Shown: positions 54,845 to 64,000 of the stretch, in pieces
Layout: every line of letters starts with the position of its first letter
Position numbering within the stretch: position 1 is the stretch's first letter
From: Paecilomyces variotii
Taxonomy: Eukaryota
Strand: one strand, 5' to 3'
Length of the DNA: 64,000 bases
Assembly: GCA_004022145.1 (NCBI GenBank)
Contig: RCNU01000003.1
The notes under the pieces: model-generated
Seen by the model: the letters and a program-made list of their open reading frames with translations, nothing else
What the model was told of the DNA's origin: nothing
The model's database searches: none
Position numbers and translations under genes: made by a program

Positions 54845-55651
54845 CTAGATTCGGACGACCATTTCACTGTTAAATCCTGCAGCTTGTGCGAAGTAATACC
54901 CTCTTTGGTTCGACACCACCCTTTTGCCGGTTTCAGCGTCTTGAAAGTCACAGTTAAAATGCGTGTGTCCAAAGGCCCACAGTTTGACATTGTTGCGTTG
55001 CCAGCATTGTTCCATCTTTAGATCGGTCATGAATCCGGAGGAAATACGGCTGTTTCGATGCCGCGGGTCAATCGCATTCTCATGTGTGGAAGGACAATAA
55101 TGGGTGAAGACAACGATCTTCCTCTGAGGTTCAAAGCGGGAGATCGAGTCGATTTCTGTATTCAGCCACGTAAGATCGGCGACGTGTGCTTCCTGATGCT
55201 TCTCGACGGACCAGTCATCAGTGTGATAGAAATCGTTGAGACCAAAATTAACGCTCTCGACTTGGTCCGCGGTAATATGGGAGAATAAAGTGCAGCCGAG
55301 AATGGTGACAGTCGCCGAGATATCGAATCGTGTCTGGTCGAGAAGAATGAACTTGCCAGTTATCTCTCCCTCCTGAAACATATGATCTGCATCGTGCTTG
55401 AAACGGAGCACTTTCGACTTCGTCTCGGTCCAGTTACTATGATACGGTTCATGGTTGCCAAGGACAAGGAAAACGACACGAAATCTTTGCAACTGCGTGC
55501 GAATGAAATCGAAGAATCCATCGTCCTTGACATAGCCAATGTCGCCCAGCAGTGCCAGGAATGGCGCTTTAGGGGTTATGGTAAAAATATCATAAGCGGA
55601 AGGCGTCTCCAGATGGAGATCTGATAGGAGTTGGATCTGTATCTCATCCAT
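54845..55651 (-). CDS. Calcineurin-like metallophosphoesterase, intronless
   Basis: SDLHLE, LGDIG, GNHE, THY and GHTH metallophosphoesterase motifs. Confidence 0.9.
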   Translation of the reverse strand: MDEIQIQLLSDLHLETPSAYDIFTITPKAPFLALLGDIGYVKDDGFFDFIRTQLQRFRVVFLVLGNHEPYHSNWTETKSKVLRFKHDADHMFQEGEITGKFILLDQTRFDISATVTILGCTLFSHITADQVESVNFGLNDFYHTDDWSVEKHQEAHVADLTWLNTEIDSISRFEPQRKIVVFTHYCPSTHENAIDPRHRNSRISSGFMTDLKMEQCWQRNNVKLWAFGHTHFNCDFQDAETGKRVVSNQRGYYFAQAAGFNSEMVVRI

Positions 55652-56230
55652 GAGTGGTTGGTTAGTTGGGAAGATTTTTATGCTTGTCGCCGAACGGGCG
55701 CTTCTGTGCCTAATATATATGTGGTGATCACCCTTCCATGTGATAACACAGTTGGGGGGACTTTTGCTACTAGTAGATATATTGGTTTCTCTTTGATTAT
55801 TTGAAATCGTAGAAACTGCTATTGAGAAGAAATACTCTTTGCCTCTTTAGATTCTCTTCTGTGCAGTAACTAGTTAGTGTTAATTTTGTACTACGATAAT
55901 GAGACGTTGCATCTTGTAGTTAACTACCGGGCTATCTATGATTTACTCGATCGACTTTTTCAGTGGGTAAGGTGTATAATTGGAACCATAGCTCTGAGAG
56001 ATTGCATTCCCGCATACTCTAGTAAGTAGATTGTTCCCTAAAGGCTCGGGAAACTCAAACTAACAGTACTACTCAGGATCACATCCTGTCGCTCAAGATA
56101 TTCCTTTTTACCTCTTTGCGGCCACTAATAAATATCGACTCGACGTAATTAGCTGCGAAATCAAATATTTCCGTACATCAAGTTGCAAAATCCAAGGGGG
56201 CCAAAAAAAATTACAAAAAAAAAGATGAAA

Positions 56231-56393
56231 CGTCAGCGACAGGATTCGAACCCTGATGAGTATGTTAGCATGTTATTGTATTTTATAATACGATTCGTAT
56301 TAGACTTACTGTGCGGGCGAACCCATTCGATGTCTACTGCCTATCAAAGATAGGGATTCGAGTCGAACGCCTTAACCACTCGGCCACACTGAC
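56231..56393 (-). tRNA. tRNA-Ser(CGA), copy 1, with canonical anticodon intron (56332-56356) and a GT-AG spliceosomal-type intron in the T-stem (56253-56309)
   Basis: Exons 56393-56357, 56331-56310 and 56252-56231 join to an 81-nt cloverleaf: acceptor GTCAGTG/CGCTGAC, A-box TGGCCGAGTGG, anticodon stem TTCGA/TCGAA, variable arm GGG-TTCG-CCC, T-arm ACAGG-TTCGAAT-CCTGT, discriminator G. Oligo-T terminator downstream. Confidence 0.9.
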
Positions 56394-57480
56394 TGCTTAA
56401 TTACTCTTTTCAGTTTATGTGTTAGATCAATCTGTTCTTCACGACAGATAGAATGGACCCCACGAGCGGCGCTTCGCAGACCTATGGTACTTGTTTGGAC
56501 ATCCTAACATCTTCGTGAGATTCTTTTTGATCGATTTGCGCGTACGAATCATTATTGACCTCGAGCTATCAATGCATCAACACCCAGAAACAGTCGAAAT
56601 ATCCAGATTCTCGCTATATCTGCATTTCTATCCGACAATCAACAGTTGTCTGCGCTAGCGCGTACTGTAATACACCTCTGCTACATGGAACAACGAGCTG
56701 TGCACCTTAATAAGTAATAAATCTGCTTTGACGAGGAGGGATATAAAGGAGAAGTTCCAGTTACTCACGCAGTCTCCTGGAAAATATCTAATTTCGTTGA
56801 CTCGCTCAGAACCTCTGCTTAGCCGACTGGCTTTGCTTCCGTCGAGGAAGAGTTCTCAATCTATACTGCGATTCACCCTATCATGGTTCCGTAATGGGGT
56901 ATTTTTACCTTGAGGGAATTAGAGTAGAATAAATGTAGCCTAGATATGCCACTGGCGTGGGTGTACCGCCCATATAAAGCGAGAATGCCATCAATTGCCA
57001 TGCATCTTTTGCACGGTGAATGGGCATGTAATCACAAACTGTCCAAAGGTTTCATCTTGCAGCCTATTTAATAAGGAAGGACTCAAAACAGAGGATTGTC
57101 GTAATAGGGCAAGGGGCATTCCAAGGCCGATTATCGACAGTTATCGTTAACCTACAATATCCTTTTTAGGTATAAGAGTAAAGTTAAATAGTACTGTGTA
57201 ACACAGACACACGGCAGGCTAACGTTTACATTGCATTGCGTCTTGATTGAGCTAGCACCCAGTGGAAGGTCTGTCAATGGTATCATCTCGAGCTACACTG
57301 GTCTATTCCCACTCATCATGACATGGTACGTAATAAGGTAGCCCACAAGTACTAAGTGACAGGCTGCAAAGTAAAGTTAAGGAGTCGAATATTTGGTCTG
57401 AAGTATGTACATAAGAAGGAATTATCTTACATATACAAAAAGCGAAAAATCTCCAAGAATAAGCGTCGTCATAACCTATT

Positions 57481-58539
57481 TCAATCCGATCCCTTCCACT
57501 GCTCCATAAATGCCTCAATACCCCCTCCGACTCCTTCTGGACTAGGCTTCTCAGCACACACATCCGGATCGAAGCCATATTTCGAACGAAGATGATCCCT
57601 CGTCGTCGGCCCGATCGTTGTGATGAACTCCCTCCTTCCCTTATCCTCGGATGTTGAAGTCGACGAACCAGGCAAGAGATCCAGTACTTTCAACATGGCA
57701 TCACACCCCGTTGGGGAAAATACCACCGTCCACAGCGCCCTCTTTTCCTCTCCACTTGATATATACTGTCTTCCACTCTTGACCGCTCGCGCAAAATCAT
57801 TCTCGAATGAATCCATCACTCCCGTCTCATAGACCACGAGCTCGTCAACTTGGATCCGCTCTCGCGATGGTAAAGACTCATCCATTAGTGTACGTGGGAT
57901 GATGTCTCTGCGCTGTTCGCCGACGAGGAAAAGGAGGGACGGCTTCGGATTTGTAGTTTCGTTCTCGTTTTCCGGGTAGAGACCATTGTAGTGCTCTAGG
58001 ATCATCCGCGCGAGGTTCTCGCCGTTCCCAGCTTCGGAGCCGTAGAGCTGCGCATGAGGCAAATGTGTGGATTGGATCGAAGAGAGAGAGCGAGAGGTAG
58101 CGGGTCCGACAGTGTAGAGAATTAGGGATTTGGATGCACTTGTTGCTTTTAGGACTGGTTTTCGTCTGAGTCAGAAAAATTCATGGCATAGAGCTTCAAG
58201 CAAAGGTTCAGATTGAAAGAGAAAACGTCAAGGAAATGCCTGGCACGTACCTCCAATTTCTTCCATAATCCGCGCGAATGCCTCTACCGCCCTCTGACTC
58301 GTGAATATCAATCCGCCATACTTCCGCCCGGATCCTTCATCCAATTGCCCCGAGAGAAAAAGATCCTTCACTATCCTCAAGTTTTCATCGTGGAATCGGT
58401 GCTCCAGCACAGGGACGAAGGTGGGGTTGTAGCCGCGTGATGAGAAGTATTCTTCGTAGCCGTCGTGCGGGGTAGATTTCGTTTTCAGGAGGAAGATGGG
58501 TGGCTTGGAAAAGGAAGGAGGTTGGGTAGATGTGGCCAT
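57481..58539 (-). CDS. HEM4: Uroporphyrinogen-III synthase, 2 exons
   Basis: IFLLKTKSTPHDGY, FVPVLEH, LIFTSQRAVEAF, YTVGPAT, GNGENLA, VYET, FSPTG, IGPTT and KPSPEG. Confidence 0.92.
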
Positions 58540-58928
58540 TGTTTCATGCTCAGTACGGTATAGGAAGACAGTGGACTTGGTCCTTTGGACTGATCTCAGC
58601 CGTCAGATATGCACTTAGCTAAGACTGCTGACGCCCAGCTAAGTTGCGGAGCTCGCGGAGACGTGTGGGGTATATATGAGGATCGGATGGCTTCGTAACC
58701 GCTCTACGCCACGCAAATACCGTTTATTATATGTTACAAGGGCATTTTCAGCACCAATACAGATTGGCCAATATCCCAATATTTGCTCTGTCAATCCAGG
58801 CATTATGATCTACAGAACCGGTGGAAACTAACTACTCTCCACGAAAGCCACCCAGATAGAACACAAATGAAATCAACTAGGTCTAGTCGAGCTTATATAC
58901 ACAAGTTTCAGAAAGAAAACGCACGCAA

Positions 58929-60528
58929 CTACTGGTCGTCCAACACATGCAGGTACTTCTTCTCTTCCTGCTTCTCCCGCTCAGTGGCCGGGGGCAGGTC
59001 GGCGTACTGAGAACTCCGGTAGCCCAGCTGTAGCCTGGTTAGATATCTCATATATAGCTGACTGAGAGGAGAAAAGGCTTACCAGGTAGTGGAAGGTGAG
59101 GTTGCTGAGTTCAGCGGGCTCAATTCCTAGATCCTTAAAGGTCTTGGCTGTGGGGTCAATCTTCTGGTCGATGAATTCCCTCTCGACCTCATCGGCAGAG
59201 AGAGTGGGCCACCAGATGAGCTTGTTGAGCCAGTAAGCAGCCGGCTTCAGGATGGCCTTGGGGAGGTTGATGTGACGGCGGTGCTTGATGATCTCACGGT
59301 CAACGAGCTCAGCGATTTCAGCGGTGGAGTAGTTTTTAGGACCGTAAAGCTCGAAAGTCTCCGAAGCGGTGGTGTCATCGTGCAGCATGCGTTCAAGAGC
59401 GGTGCCAACATCGATAACCTATAATGGTTAGCCGTTGCACTGGTTGCCTTAGATGTCCATCCACTTACGTGAACAGGCCAGTAGCGCTCCTGCATGTGGT
59501 TGGCCGTGAGGAGGTTGGTGACACCAGCGAGCTTGTGGAGCAGGTTGTCTTCGAAACCAAACATGGGCGCAGGACGGACGATGGTAGTCTCAGGGAAGAT
59601 GTCACGGGCGACCTTCTCACCCCATCCCTATCGATATAATTCAGTATGCGCCTGACGTCTCATTAACCGCAGGATGGACGAACCTTGGTACGGAAATAGT
59701 CGGATGGCGAGTCCATGTCTGCGTTGAAGGAGGAGACGTGGATGAAACGGTCAACGTCGTACTTGGCGACTGCTTCCGCAATACGCTCGGTACCATCAAC
59801 ATGAACATCCTCGTAGGAGAAGTTCCTATTAACTCTTCAGCATGACTTCCAACAAGATTTGAGGTAAATTAAAACCAACTTTGTAGGATACTGGCGACCA
59901 ACAAGGTTGTAGACGACATCTGAGTGACGAACACTCTCCTCAATCGACTGGGTGTTGCGGAGGTCGTATTCCTGGACGCGCAAAGGATCAGTATGGCGCT
60001 CAGTCCTTCGTCGAATTGCCAAATCGTACCATGAAGACGACTCTTCCCAGATCACCAGTAACTTTGAGGTGACGCTTGGCCATTTCCTCACGGTAAGGAA
60101 CGACAACGGTGCATCCTTGGCGGGCTGTTGCGATATCAGTCACAAAGCATCCCTGGTGTTCAAGTCATGGCAGACATACCCAGTCTGTTCACAATGTAGC
60201 GGCCCAGGAATCCAGTAGCACCGAAGACGGTGGCAGTATGACCTGCGACTTCATTGAGCCAAAATTCGACGGAAGGAAGAATTAGTAGGGATGTGTACCT
60301 CCAAGGGACGACCTGCGGGAAGAAGACTGTCAGTTAGACCTCGGCACACAACGACAACCCAGCCTTCACTCACCGTCCACCCTGAACCTTGATGATGGGC
60401 TTTCCAGTCCTGGTGATCGACACATCTTGAATAGATCTACGCTGCTGCAATTGGAACTGCGCGCGAGCATTGATGGGTGCGGGGGCGAACGCCCTCGAGG
60501 CGCTGCTGATGGCCCGGGACTTCTGCAT
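58929..60528 (-). CDS. NDUFA9: NADH:ubiquinone oxidoreductase 39/40-kDa subunit (NDUFA9 homologue), multi-exon
   Basis: Mitochondrial presequence, ATVFGATGFLGRY, HLKVTGDLG, VRHSDVVYNLVGR, VRPAPMFGFED. Confidence 0.93.
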
Positions 60529-60993
60529 GGTCGCTCTGCGGATGAATGACTGTTAGAAAAGAAGAGCCCACCAAGTTAAGGACCAATTGACGGTCCGGCA
60601 GCAGTGATCTTGGTGGACGAGACTCACTGCAGAGCTTGAAGCGTTCCTGTGCTTGGTGGTTGCTGGTCCCTCGTCTCCAGAAGTTGAGCAGAGCACGGGA
60701 CTTGCAGCACGATGCGCTAACCCAAATCTGGACACAAATCGCACCTTAATCGTTGAGCCGCATCAAGCATGTACCAATGCCTTTGGAGATATTTCCAACC
60801 TTCAGCAATTGCTGTTCTACCGGAGATATTTACGAGGGATGTATTCCTACTTTTATATAGTTTCAACAATTAGTATTTAAAGAGCTAACAAACTATCATA
60901 GGAAATGCACGTGCCCAGTGCTTTGGACTTCGACCCTCTCTCCAAGAATGACTTGGAAGCGGTACAGCTAGATCATAGAGGACAAACGTGCCA

Positions 60994-61824
60994 TCATGCA
61001 CAATCTGCCCTCGCAAAGAACAGCGTCCTTTGTTGGTCCTTGCCCTTCATGACGAATTTCATTGGCTTCTCCACGACCTGGTAGTCGAACGCCGCCTCTA
61101 CTCCAGCATCTTCGCATAGCTTCCTCACCTCATCGCGTGTAAAGCCATGCTTCCCTATTGTCGCTGCAGCTTCTGGATGATCTTTGTGGAACTCGTGAGT
61201 GTGCTTGTCGGGAACGAAGTCTACGATGAGTAATGTGCCACCTTTCTTCAACCTGTCCGCGAGGCGTTTGAGAGCGAACTCCGGATCAGGGAAGTGGTGA
61301 AGTGCCAAACTGACGACAACTATGTCGAAATTAAAGAGATTTGGTTCACAAAGCTCATCTGCAATGGTTTCACAGAGCAGGTCGCCCTTAAGCCCAACCA
61401 TCTTTTCTGCGACTCCGGCCTCCCTGGCATTCTTGTTGAACTCAGCAATCATGTTGTCGGAAACATCGATGCCTACTGCCTTTGTAACGAATGGAGCCAA
61501 AGTCTATGTGCGTTAGCTTCTTGTGTAGGTGTCTATCTGACAATATCCAATGCATACGCTTGAGACAGTACCCGGGCCACAGGCATAGTCCAAGAGCGTG
61601 ATTTCTTGGTCTCTTCCACCCTCAGTGTCTGTCCATTTGGGACTAATCCAATGACGGCGAGACTCTATCTCGCTGATCAAGAGCTGTGTTGCCTCGGCGA
61701 AGTCAGTTTTGTAATGAGTTGCCTTTTCGCTGTGGCTGATTGTCAGATAATCAAGTCATGACCACACAACTTTCTGCCTGGCTTACTCGAAATAGTGCCG
61801 ATTTGCTTCAGTAAAATGAGACAT
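60994..61824 (-). CDS. Class I SAM-dependent methyltransferase, 3 exons
   Basis: MSHFTEANRHYFD, LLDYACGPG, GIDVSDNM, FDIVVVSLALHHF and LKKGGTLLIVDF. Confidence 0.88.
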
Positions 61825-62494
61825 CTTGATAGGCGACGAGGTTGCAAGTATCCTTTCTTCAACACAAGAAACACAAGAATATGTGGGTTTCTTTGGAATC
61901 GACGTCAAGTGAGAACTGCAGGGTGCTTGTTTAATGCAATTTGAATAAGTAGAAGCCTGCGCAGTCGATATTAAAAGAATAACCGTAAGACCGAATTGGT
62001 TGTATGTGAATCTGGGCTTTTATACCAGGTCCTGGCTCGGAGACATATCGGATACTTCTGATATCGTCCACGATGGGCCCCACTCCAGCTGCAGTAGTAT
62101 CTGCTCTCCAGATGCAGATGGCCCTGGTAAATTATCCGTGTAGCCTAGTTTGGGCTCAAAATGTCTGCTGCGATGGCAGAAAAAAGCAATAAGGAGGGGC
62201 TTTTAACTTTTAGTTCGAGGATGTACCATATGTAGTTCCACCAAGGTAGCAAGGTGGCATAGCTCCCTTTCTGAGCAAGTAAAGGACGTCTTCGACTACC
62301 CTGTTTATTCACGTATTTGGTATCAATCACGAATTCGTTGGCTCAGAAATGGGGAAGTAAGTTACTCCGTTTTGAGTCTGTTGCGGCTCGACAACATCAA
62401 CCATGTCAACCTACCTATGGGCAACAGCAGTCTACTACTCGACTACTCCGGTGTTTGAGACACAAAAAAACAAGAAAAAAAAAAAGAAAGCAAC

Positions 62495-62659
62495 CGTCAG
62501 CGACAGGATTCGAACCCTGATTGGTACATGTTAGTTTATCTTGTTTTTTTCTGTAATTCAGTTCGAAGTAGACTTACTGTGCGGGCGAACCCATTCGATG
62601 TCTACTCCTATCATAGATAGTATTCGAGTCGAACGCCTTAACCACTCGGCCACACTGAC
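62495..62659 (-). tRNA. tRNA-Ser(CGA), copy 2, with canonical anticodon intron (62600-62622) and a GT-AG spliceosomal-type intron in the T-stem (62517-62577)
   Basis: Exons 62659-62623, 62599-62578 and 62516-62495 are identical to copy 1 while both introns are diverged. Oligo-T terminator downstream. Confidence 0.9.
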
Positions 62660-62742
62660 ATAACTGGCGGAAATTTTTGCCAGCGGTAGTCTAATAATAC
62701 TACTCCGCGTGCCTTATCAAGATCGAGGCGATCCCTCCGCGC

Positions 62743-62790
62743 GGAGCTTGTAGCCTGAGTACGGCGCCGCAGAGACACCCGTTTAGCTCC
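62743..62790. promoter_or_regulatory. Two inverted GGAGCT motifs upstream of RPN9 (candidate Rpn4-type proteasome elements)
   Basis: GGAGCT 62743-62748 and AGCTCC 62785-62790. GGAGCT is the motif associated with proteasome promoters in filamentous ascomycetes, but it is short and could occur by chance. Confidence 0.35.
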
Positions 62791-62983
62791 ACGTCGGCCT
62801 TCCTTCAGTGATCACGGCGGAGGGACAGCTTCGTCAGCATACACACCTTTATACCTCGACTTGCTGCCATCGTCCAGCTCTTTAGACCCTGAAATCATCA
62901 TCTTGCCCTCCTTACCTCCTCCTGGGGCCTTGAATTATTCTCTCCGCAGCCCGTCCCTGTTGACACCCGCCTCCTTCCCTACC

Positions 62984-64000
62984 ATGGAGGGTGACAAGAT
63001 CGCCGACTTCCTCGCAGACCAGCGCGATCAAGCTCCTGCGGAGGCGCAGGCCTTTTTCTTGAGCTTCGAAGATTTCTGGGAGAGGAAGCTATGGCATCAA
63101 CTCACGAATTCCCTCATAGATTTCTTCTCTCTACCAGAGAGCGCACCGCAACGGCTACCTCTCTTCAAGTCGTTCATCCTCAGCTTCGCCGATAGGATCA
63201 ATCAGCTGAAGTTCGTGTCGCTGGGTTTGATGGCATCTACGCAATGCGCAGGTCAGTGGTTTTGATATATACAATCCCTTGCTCCATTGGGTGCTACGTT
63301 GAAGCTCGTCCGATCTGAACAGAGGCTGACATCACTGGTGGTCCTTAGATGACAATGAACGATTTGCTTTCCTTACTTCCCTTGCAGACAAGGTCAACAA
63401 GCCAGACTCGCAGGATGCATATGTCTACGCTTTGGCAGATGTGGCCAGCGTGAAGCTACGACTAAAGGATTTTGAGGGAGCGCGCAAGGACTTGGATACT
63501 TCTGAGAAGATCCTGGACAGATTCGACTCCGTTGAGACGGTTGTCCATGCTTCGTTCTACAAAGTAAACGCTGCTTACTACCAGGTATGTGGAAGACAGT
63601 TGATGCTTTTTAGATACTGCCATGGTTCTAATGTACGATCTCCAGGCCAAGCAAGAATTCGCCGCTTATTACAAGAACGCCCTGCTGTACCTCGCATGCA
63701 TCAACATTGAAGACTTGACTGAAGAAGAGCGTGTGTCGCGCGCATATGACCTCAGTGTTGCAGCCCTTGTTTCGGACTCAATCTATAACTTTGGTGAACT
63801 GCTCCTGCACCCTATCCTGGACTCCCTCACCGAGACACCCCACGCCTGGCTGCGGGACCTTCTCTTCGCCTTCAACCGTGGCGATCTCACCGCCTACGAC
63901 GTCCTCGCCGGTAACATCACCAAGAACCAGCTCCTCGAGCAACACCGTATCTTCCTGTACCAGAAGATCTCTCTGTCGGCCCTAACAGAGACTGTCTTCC
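62984..64000 (+). CDS. RPN9: 26S proteasome lid subunit Rpn9 (3' end beyond window)
   Basis: FEDFWERKLWHQLT, FADRINQLKFV, FAAYYKNALLYLAC and IYNFGELLLHPIL. Confidence 0.95.

Follow-up and report, generated by a model that had tools for sequence, protein, structure and literature searches.

Two fungal tRNA-Ser(CGA) genes, probably functional, that are each interrupted by a canonical tRNA intron and a spliceosomal-type intron

How can a tRNA gene be expressed when its T stem is split by a stretch of DNA resembling an mRNA intron? The question is raised by two loci on the minus strand of a 64,000 nt stretch of DNA (the window in what follows), at which exact pattern searches of the window recovered identical tRNA exon strings (chance expectation zero). 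The window is eukaryotic nuclear DNA, with genes containing short GT-AG introns. Among them, according to Pfam, are genes for TTI1, for a proteasome subunit of the PSD13/Rpn9 type, for uroporphyrinogen-III synthase and for a methyltransferase. Judged from gene and intron features, the host is a fungus, and the sequencing runs in which the stretch occurs are labelled either as one organism or as food and grain fermentation metagenomes. Nuclear introns are generally divided by the machinery that removes them. In the passages concerned with intron classes, a 2025 publication places spliceosomal introns in mRNAs and further products of Pol II and describes the three nuclear intron types as completely unrelated (PMC12530127), and the relevant part of a 2023 review sets the spliceosome, which splices pre-mRNA, against the endonuclease and ligase that splice pre-tRNA (PMC10275265). 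A tRNA gene in need of both the spliceosome and the endonuclease would break this accepted division.

Both copies have the same exon-intron layout, and in both of them the insert interrupts the gene between T-stem positions 51 and 52. A preliminary description of the DNA had placed copy 2 at 62495-62659, and these coordinates are exact, the Rfam tRNA model matching that same span. The features of the two genes are the following:

62495..62659, minus strand: tRNA-Ser(CGA) gene, copy 2, 165 nt, three exons and two introns (Rfam RF00005, 29.3 bits; tRNA-Ser(cga) by ARAGORN once the T-stem insert is removed)
62623..62659, minus strand: copy 2 exon 1, 37 nt, tRNA positions 1-37, with the anticodon CGA
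62642-62652, minus strand: copy 2 A-box-like TGGCCGAGTGG
62600..62622, minus strand: copy 2 canonical anticodon-loop intron, 23 nt, between positions 37 and 38 (ARAGORN; retained in an RNA contig of assembly X6)
62578..62599, minus strand: copy 2 exon 2, 22 nt, comprising the 3' half of the anticodon stem, the variable arm and T-stem positions 49-51
62517..62577, minus strand: copy 2 T-stem insert, 61 nt, a GT-AG spliceosomal-type intron with GTAAGT, CTAAC (branch A 14 nt from the end) and CAG (sequence; X6 record 17)
62495..62516, minus strand: copy 2 exon 3, 22 nt, comprising T-stem positions 52-53, the T loop, the acceptor 3' strand and G73
62506-62516, minus strand: copy 2 B box GGTTCGAATCC (sequence)
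62463..62494, minus strand: copy 2 3' trailer with T11 (62475-62485) and T7 (62464-62470), a putative Pol III terminator (sequence)
56231..56393, minus strand: tRNA-Ser(CGA) gene, copy 1, 163 nt, exon-intron layout as in copy 2 (Rfam, 28.3 bits; tRNA-Ser(cga) by ARAGORN once the T-stem insert is removed)
Within copy 1, minus strand: exons of 37, 22 and 22 nt, the same lengths as in copy 2
56332..56356, minus strand: copy 1 canonical anticodon-loop intron, 25 nt, at 37/38 (ARAGORN)
56253..56309, minus strand: copy 1 T-stem insert, 57 nt, a GT-AG spliceosomal-type intron with GTAAGT, CTAAC (branch A 12 nt from the end) and CAG (from sequence only)
56203..56230, minus strand: copy 1 3' trailer with T9 (56215-56223) and T8 (56203-56210), a putative Pol III terminator (sequence)

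The identity of the genes becomes apparent when the insert is taken out. Run on the genomic window, ARAGORN finds no tRNA, and the Rfam tRNA model RF00005 scores copy 2 (29.3 bits) just above and copy 1 (28.3 bits) below its gathering score of 29. When the insert is cut out exactly at GT..AG, ARAGORN calls a canonical tRNA-Ser(cga) in both copies, the product being 81 nt long with a class II variable arm, G73 and an intron at 37/38. After this removal both copies thus have the cloverleaf, the CGA anticodon, the long variable arm and the G73 of a class II tRNA-Ser. The tRNA-Ser(CGA) of yeast also carries a canonical intron at 37/38. Metagenomes were scanned with the exon 2 string, either continuation being allowed, and this gave 10 loci, which represent other fungal tRNA genes. 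In all of them (10/10) the T arm is uninterrupted, with the same sequence as the predicted ligated exon 2-exon 3 junction, and no orthologue with a T-stem insert was present among the 10. Neither the scans of prokaryote genomes nor the viral scan returned any orthologue of the insert-bearing gene (0 in each).

Inserts of this kind mislead covariance models, as illustrated by the cmscan alignment of copy 2, where an intronic UCGAAC takes the place of the anticodon stem's 3' strand. The genes expose an annotation blind spot, with both copies missed by ARAGORN and at or below the Rfam threshold. Since finders miss such genes, genomes carrying them would seem to be without this tRNA. Both T-stem introns (62517-62577 and 56253-56309) also contain a short CGAA-centred palindrome, which resembles the start of exon 2.

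Is the T-stem insert an intron of the spliceosomal type? The host standard was a set of 11 RNA-verified GT..AG introns of the neighbouring genes (11 of the 15 joints listed for X6, an RNA assembly of the same strain with 0 differences from the window in its listed pieces). These control introns are 50-97 nt long (median 56 nt), and the tRNA inserts measure 57 and 61 nt. The distance from the branch A to the 3' end is 9-19 nt in those controls where the motif was found, and 12 and 14 nt in the inserts. The controls end with either CAG or TAG, and both inserts with CAG. An exact GTAAGT is present in 2/2 inserts versus 1/11 controls, and CTAAC in 2/2 inserts versus 3/11 controls, that is, all the signals in the tRNA inserts are in their best consensus version, above the introns of the neighbours. 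By our arithmetic, a random insert would combine GTAAGT, a correctly zoned CTAAC and a terminal CAG with a chance of about 1e-7. Both copies have the 5' splice site, the branch motif CTRAY, the YAG and a length within the host range that characterise U2-type GT-AG introns. At the level of sequence the insert is in every respect a spliceosomal intron, and for copy 2 only its precise excision at GT..AG was also seen, on a long RNA contig.

The base composition of the inserts is somewhat particular, with an A content of 44 and 48% (21-37% in the controls) and little T. Avoidance of T runs was considered as a possible signal in the inserts and rejected as not significant; 6/11 controls are also devoid of runs of at least 4. 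Also rejected, as unconserved, was a shared feature in which the anticodon intron would pair through its 3' end with positions 4-13 of the T-stem intron. In copy 2 (62600-62622 and 62565-62574) this pairing comprises 9 bp at -12.6 kcal/mol, which is matched by 2.1% of 1000 shuffles, and in copy 1 it reaches -6.7 kcal/mol, matched by 69% of the shuffles. The folds of the whole precursors are of unremarkable stability (z = -1.09 and -1.35).

The contig on which the excision was seen is X6 record 17, 4147 nt in length. It covers 61787-62456 and then 62577-63249, with 59 letters between them and 0 differences in its three listed pieces. The genome has 60 bases at 62457-62516, against which the record shows 59 and a further letter compatible with either side; between 62456 and 62578 the genome has 121 letters and the record 59 plus the one ambiguous letter. 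It follows from this letter count that exactly 62517-62577, the 61 nt insert, is missing and that 62516 is joined to 62578. On the plus strand the joint has the ends CT..AC, equivalent to GT..AG when read along the tRNA. The alignment reported the joint as 56251->62577 with a cut of +1, an odd outcome due to the identity of exon 3 in the two copies and to the masking of 62457-62500 as low complexity; as a consequence, the letters of exon 3 were assigned to copy 1.

Record 17 still contains the 5' leader as well as the anticodon intron, passes the T11 run and continues into the neighbouring genes; therefore it is not a Pol III pre-tRNA. It is a Pol II read-through transcript or a merger of overlapping transcripts rather than a short Pol III precursor, and the spliceosomal excision of the copy 2 insert was thus observed on a non-Pol III RNA contig. 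The RNA evidence covers copy 2 only, X6 having no cover of copy 1's own intron sequences as judged from bin depths (a lack of cover carries no evidential weight), and it consists of assembled contigs, which carry no ratio of spliced to unspliced RNA. The DNA contig of X7 and the contigs of X15 and X16 align through both inserts, and the joined form was therefore seen in the RNA assembly only. These three represent a lineage with approximately 4-6% differences, X7 being its DNA run. Despite their RNA label, X15 and X16 retain every one of the neighbouring introns, and they were used as divergent-lineage contigs only.

Over 55000-63900 this lineage, with its divergence of approximately 4-6%, is found in food and grain fermentation metagenomes as well as in some runs bearing the organism's own label, and it has both tRNA loci and both inserts. 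Two joints in X16 were considered and set aside. One of them (56252->56370, depth 12.2, side 24), in which a loose end at 56213 carries 51 other letters, was read as another tRNA-Ser gene or another organism. The other (56355->62622, with 38 letters fitting both sides) was attributed to the assembly having run through exon 1, which the copies share.

Introns outside the anticodon loop are familiar from other organisms, which raises another explanation, namely an ectopic tRNA intron like those of Archaea or Cyanidioschyzon. Such an insert would be cut by the endonuclease at a bulge-helix-bulge, and its GT, CTAAC and AG would be coincidental. Introns at non-canonical positions, and several introns in one gene, are described for Archaea and the red alga Cyanidioschyzon merolae (PMC3978253, PMC4033280). 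The present genes resemble these in having more than one intron, of which one is outside the anticodon loop. Such introns, however, depend on the bulge-helix-bulge and the endonuclease (PMC3978253, PMC4033280), whereas the T-stem insert is removed at GT..AG and does not have the geometry. In a simple geometric pairing test, a bulge-helix-bulge did not fit the T-insert junctions in either register (1/4 central and 0-2/4 outer pairs). The anticodon introns of both copies are located at 37/38 and have 4/4 outer pairs with the anticodon stem as the outer helix, as expected of endonuclease substrates. Both copies consequently possess a canonical eukaryotic tRNA intron (23 and 25 nt, at 37/38), from which the T-stem insert differs in its position (51/52), in lacking a bulge-helix-bulge and in having spliceosomal signals. 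The three signals are perfect and conserved, the length and the branch distance match those of the host mRNA introns, and record 17 is without the insert yet still has the true endonuclease intron. We regard an ectopic tRNA intron as very improbable.

Given a spliceosomal intron, the next question is which polymerase transcribes the genes. Pol III transcription of both copies from internal A and B boxes is the most likely, judging by the sequence features. The B box GGTTCGAATCC occurs in both copies, and these are the sole two B-box matches within the window. It is intact and located immediately 3' of the 3' splice site of the T-stem intron. At positions 8-18 there is the A-box-like TGGCCGAGTGG, presumably a match to the A-box consensus. 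The longest T run inside either gene is 3, and the runs T9/T8 of copy 1 and T11/T7 of copy 2 follow within 10 nt, the trailers being otherwise unrelated. In terms of sequence features, both loci therefore look like type 2 Pol III genes, with A and B boxes, a downstream T run and none inside. Moreover, the copies share nothing outside the gene, and the driver of their expression must then be inside it.

It could also be that the tRNA is hosted by a Pol II transcript, being part of a longer capped RNA such as the upstream or divergent transcript of a neighbour, with no role for Pol III. The T-stem intron would in that case be spliced co-transcriptionally and the tRNA then freed by RNase P and RNase Z. 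In favour of such a host, spliceosome recruitment is aided by Pol II and the cap, and the sole spliced RNA seen is continuous with the neighbouring genes and passes T11. Nevertheless, the flanks of the copies are unrelated, so each of them would need a Pol II promoter of its own, and the A and B boxes are intact, with T9 or T11 right after the gene and no internal T run longer than 3. Nor is the spliceosome restricted to Pol II products, as the U6 RNA of fission yeast, according to the part of a review that treats it, is a Pol III transcript spliced by the spliceosome (PMC5855946). We consider a Pol II host unlikely, and the same holds for the co-transcriptional route of maturation that goes with it.

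The comparison of the two copies bears on whether the genes function at all. It had been claimed in the preliminary description that all 81 exon nucleotides match and that both introns have drifted, and the alignments agree: the exons are identical at 37/37, 22/22 and 22/22 positions (81/81), the T-stem inserts of 57 and 61 nt differ in length and interior and are identical in 43/61 columns (14 mismatches and 4 gap columns), and the anticodon introns of 25 and 23 nt are identical in 21/25 columns. Flanks of 100 nt show 52-55% identity in a forced global alignment, which is no better than random-looking. At the overall rate of the insert, in which 18/61 columns have changed, the probability of 81 unchanged exon sites is approximately 5e-13 by our arithmetic. 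As for the signals, the same description held that the insert keeps its start GTAAGTCTA, CTAACAT and the final ATCAG at the same position. All three elements are indeed present in both copies, but the position of CTAACAT is not identical, since it starts 16 nt from the insert 3' end in copy 1 and 18 nt in copy 2.

These figures can be set against the view that the loci are disabled tRNA genes, i.e. that the insert inactivated an ancestral gene, the copies are its relics and the trimming in a read-through RNA is fortuitous. The loci are rejected by the standard finders (none by ARAGORN; 28.3 and 29.3 bits by Rfam), as relics might be, and the mature tRNA-Ser(CGA) is still only predicted. Relics, however, would hardly be identical at 81/81 exon sites when 18/61 insert columns and all of the flanks have changed. 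Neither would they be expected to keep the three splice signals at a better-than-average consensus in both copies, nor to preserve in each copy the 37/38 intron and the T runs of the putative terminator. It is implausible that the identity stems from gene conversion, which would have had to act on three short exons and leave out the introns between them. That the genes are disabled is in our opinion improbable, even more so than a Pol II host. The earlier reading of the loci as functional, spliced genes gains support from the exon identity, the ARAGORN calls after insert removal, the X6 RNA contig and the divergent-lineage contigs.

As the T-stem intron is homologous in the two copies, it was presumably gained a single time, before the gene duplication. 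The duplication in turn is older than the split from the divergent lineage represented by X7, X15 and X16.

Altogether, it is quite likely that both loci are functional nuclear fungal tRNA-Ser(CGA) genes, each with a tRNA intron at 37/38 and a U2-type spliceosomal intron, and that they are made by Pol III. If Pol III genes have introns of both types, their maturation would need both the spliceosome and the tRNA endonuclease. Pol III would produce a precursor of approximately 180 nt, in which the optimal signals (GUAAGU for U1 and U6, the CUAAC branch site 12-14 nt upstream of the 3' end, and CAG) could be recognised by U1, the branch-site factors and U2, and the spliceosome would ligate exons 2 and 3. 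With 57-61 nt between its strands the T arm is unable to form, and the spliceosome is therefore expected to act first, in the nucleus. The same order is suggested by the later enzymes, which need a folded structure. Once the insert has been removed, the body would fold into a substrate for RNase P and RNase Z, which would trim it, and for the endonuclease; the 37/38 intron (23 or 25 nt) would then be removed by the tRNA splicing endonuclease and the ligase. The X6 contig, with the insert absent and the anticodon intron present, agrees with a spliceosome-first order. We infer the order of the splicing steps, as well as the production of a mature tRNA and transcription by Pol III, from these considerations. 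It may be speculated that optimal signals suit an intron that is without cap-coupled or Pol II-coupled recruitment.

How do these genes compare with other structural RNA genes interrupted by spliceosomal introns? The nearest analogue appears to be the mRNA-type intron in the U6 snRNA gene, which is described for Schizosaccharomyces pombe and other fungi in the corresponding section of a 2018 review (PMC5855946, citing Tani and Ohshima 1989, 1991; Canzler et al. 2016). Both introns are short GT-AG introns with canonical 5' splice, branch and 3' splice sites and with a sequence that is unconserved outside the signals, and both reside in a gene for a small structured RNA with Pol III features. 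The host gene here, however, encodes a tRNA and not a component of the spliceosome, so that reverse splicing at the catalytic centre is not obviously applicable. Furthermore, the tRNA-Ser(CGA) gene additionally holds an endonuclease-type intron, and its transcription by Pol III is deduced from sequence features. As proposed for U6, the intron might have been inserted into an abundant RNA by reverse splicing and have reached the gene through reverse transcription and recombination. The same section of the review reports spliceosomal introns from the U1, U2 and U5 snRNAs of Rhodotorula hasegawae and from ascomycete rDNA, and tRNA is absent from its list of intron-bearing non-coding RNA genes (PMC5855946). 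Like the T-stem insert, those introns interrupt a conserved structural RNA whose fold needs their removal, but unlike a tRNA their hosts are transcribed by Pol II or Pol I.

Full-text searches of the openly accessible literature, main texts only, turned up no paper in which a tRNA gene is described as carrying a spliceosomal intron. With some reservation we lean towards the view that this is the first spliceosomal intron known in a tRNA gene, that a Pol III pre-tRNA passes through the spliceosome and then the endonuclease, and that the intron was gained once, before the duplication. If this is true, a single RNA of 81 nt depends on two intron-removal systems regarded as unrelated. If there is also no intron-free copy elsewhere in the genome, decoding by the UCG-reading tRNA is tied to the activity of the spliceosome. 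The genes would thereby offer a second case, independent of U6, for studying whether Pol III transcripts are processed by the spliceosome and in what manner, and they bear on the colonisation of structural RNAs by introns.

A third locus of the same organism, outside the window, matches 62623-62661 (39 nt, i.e. exon 1 and two leader bases). It was traced from loose ends at 62623 and 62661 in X6, X7, X15 and X16 and has 2 differences in the two matching contigs listed (X15 and X7). Beyond the match its sequence differs, and the start of this part resembles the anticodon intron of copy 1. The locus is probably another intron-containing tRNA-Ser gene.

Two further observations come from X6 RNA contigs. 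At 60244-60372 an X6 RNA contig skips 127 bases with the non-canonical ends GC..TC and has 10 other letters instead. The skip adjoins, on the upstream side, a multi-intron gene at 58981-60139, and it could be either an assembly path or an unusual junction. At 61825-62456 an X6 RNA contig is unbroken for approximately 630 nt, from the start codon of the methyltransferase (about 61824, minus strand) to tRNA copy 2, and the same contig extends from copy 2 into the divergently oriented gene of the proteasome subunit. The intergenic region that contains tRNA copy 2 thus seems subject to pervasive or overlapping transcription.
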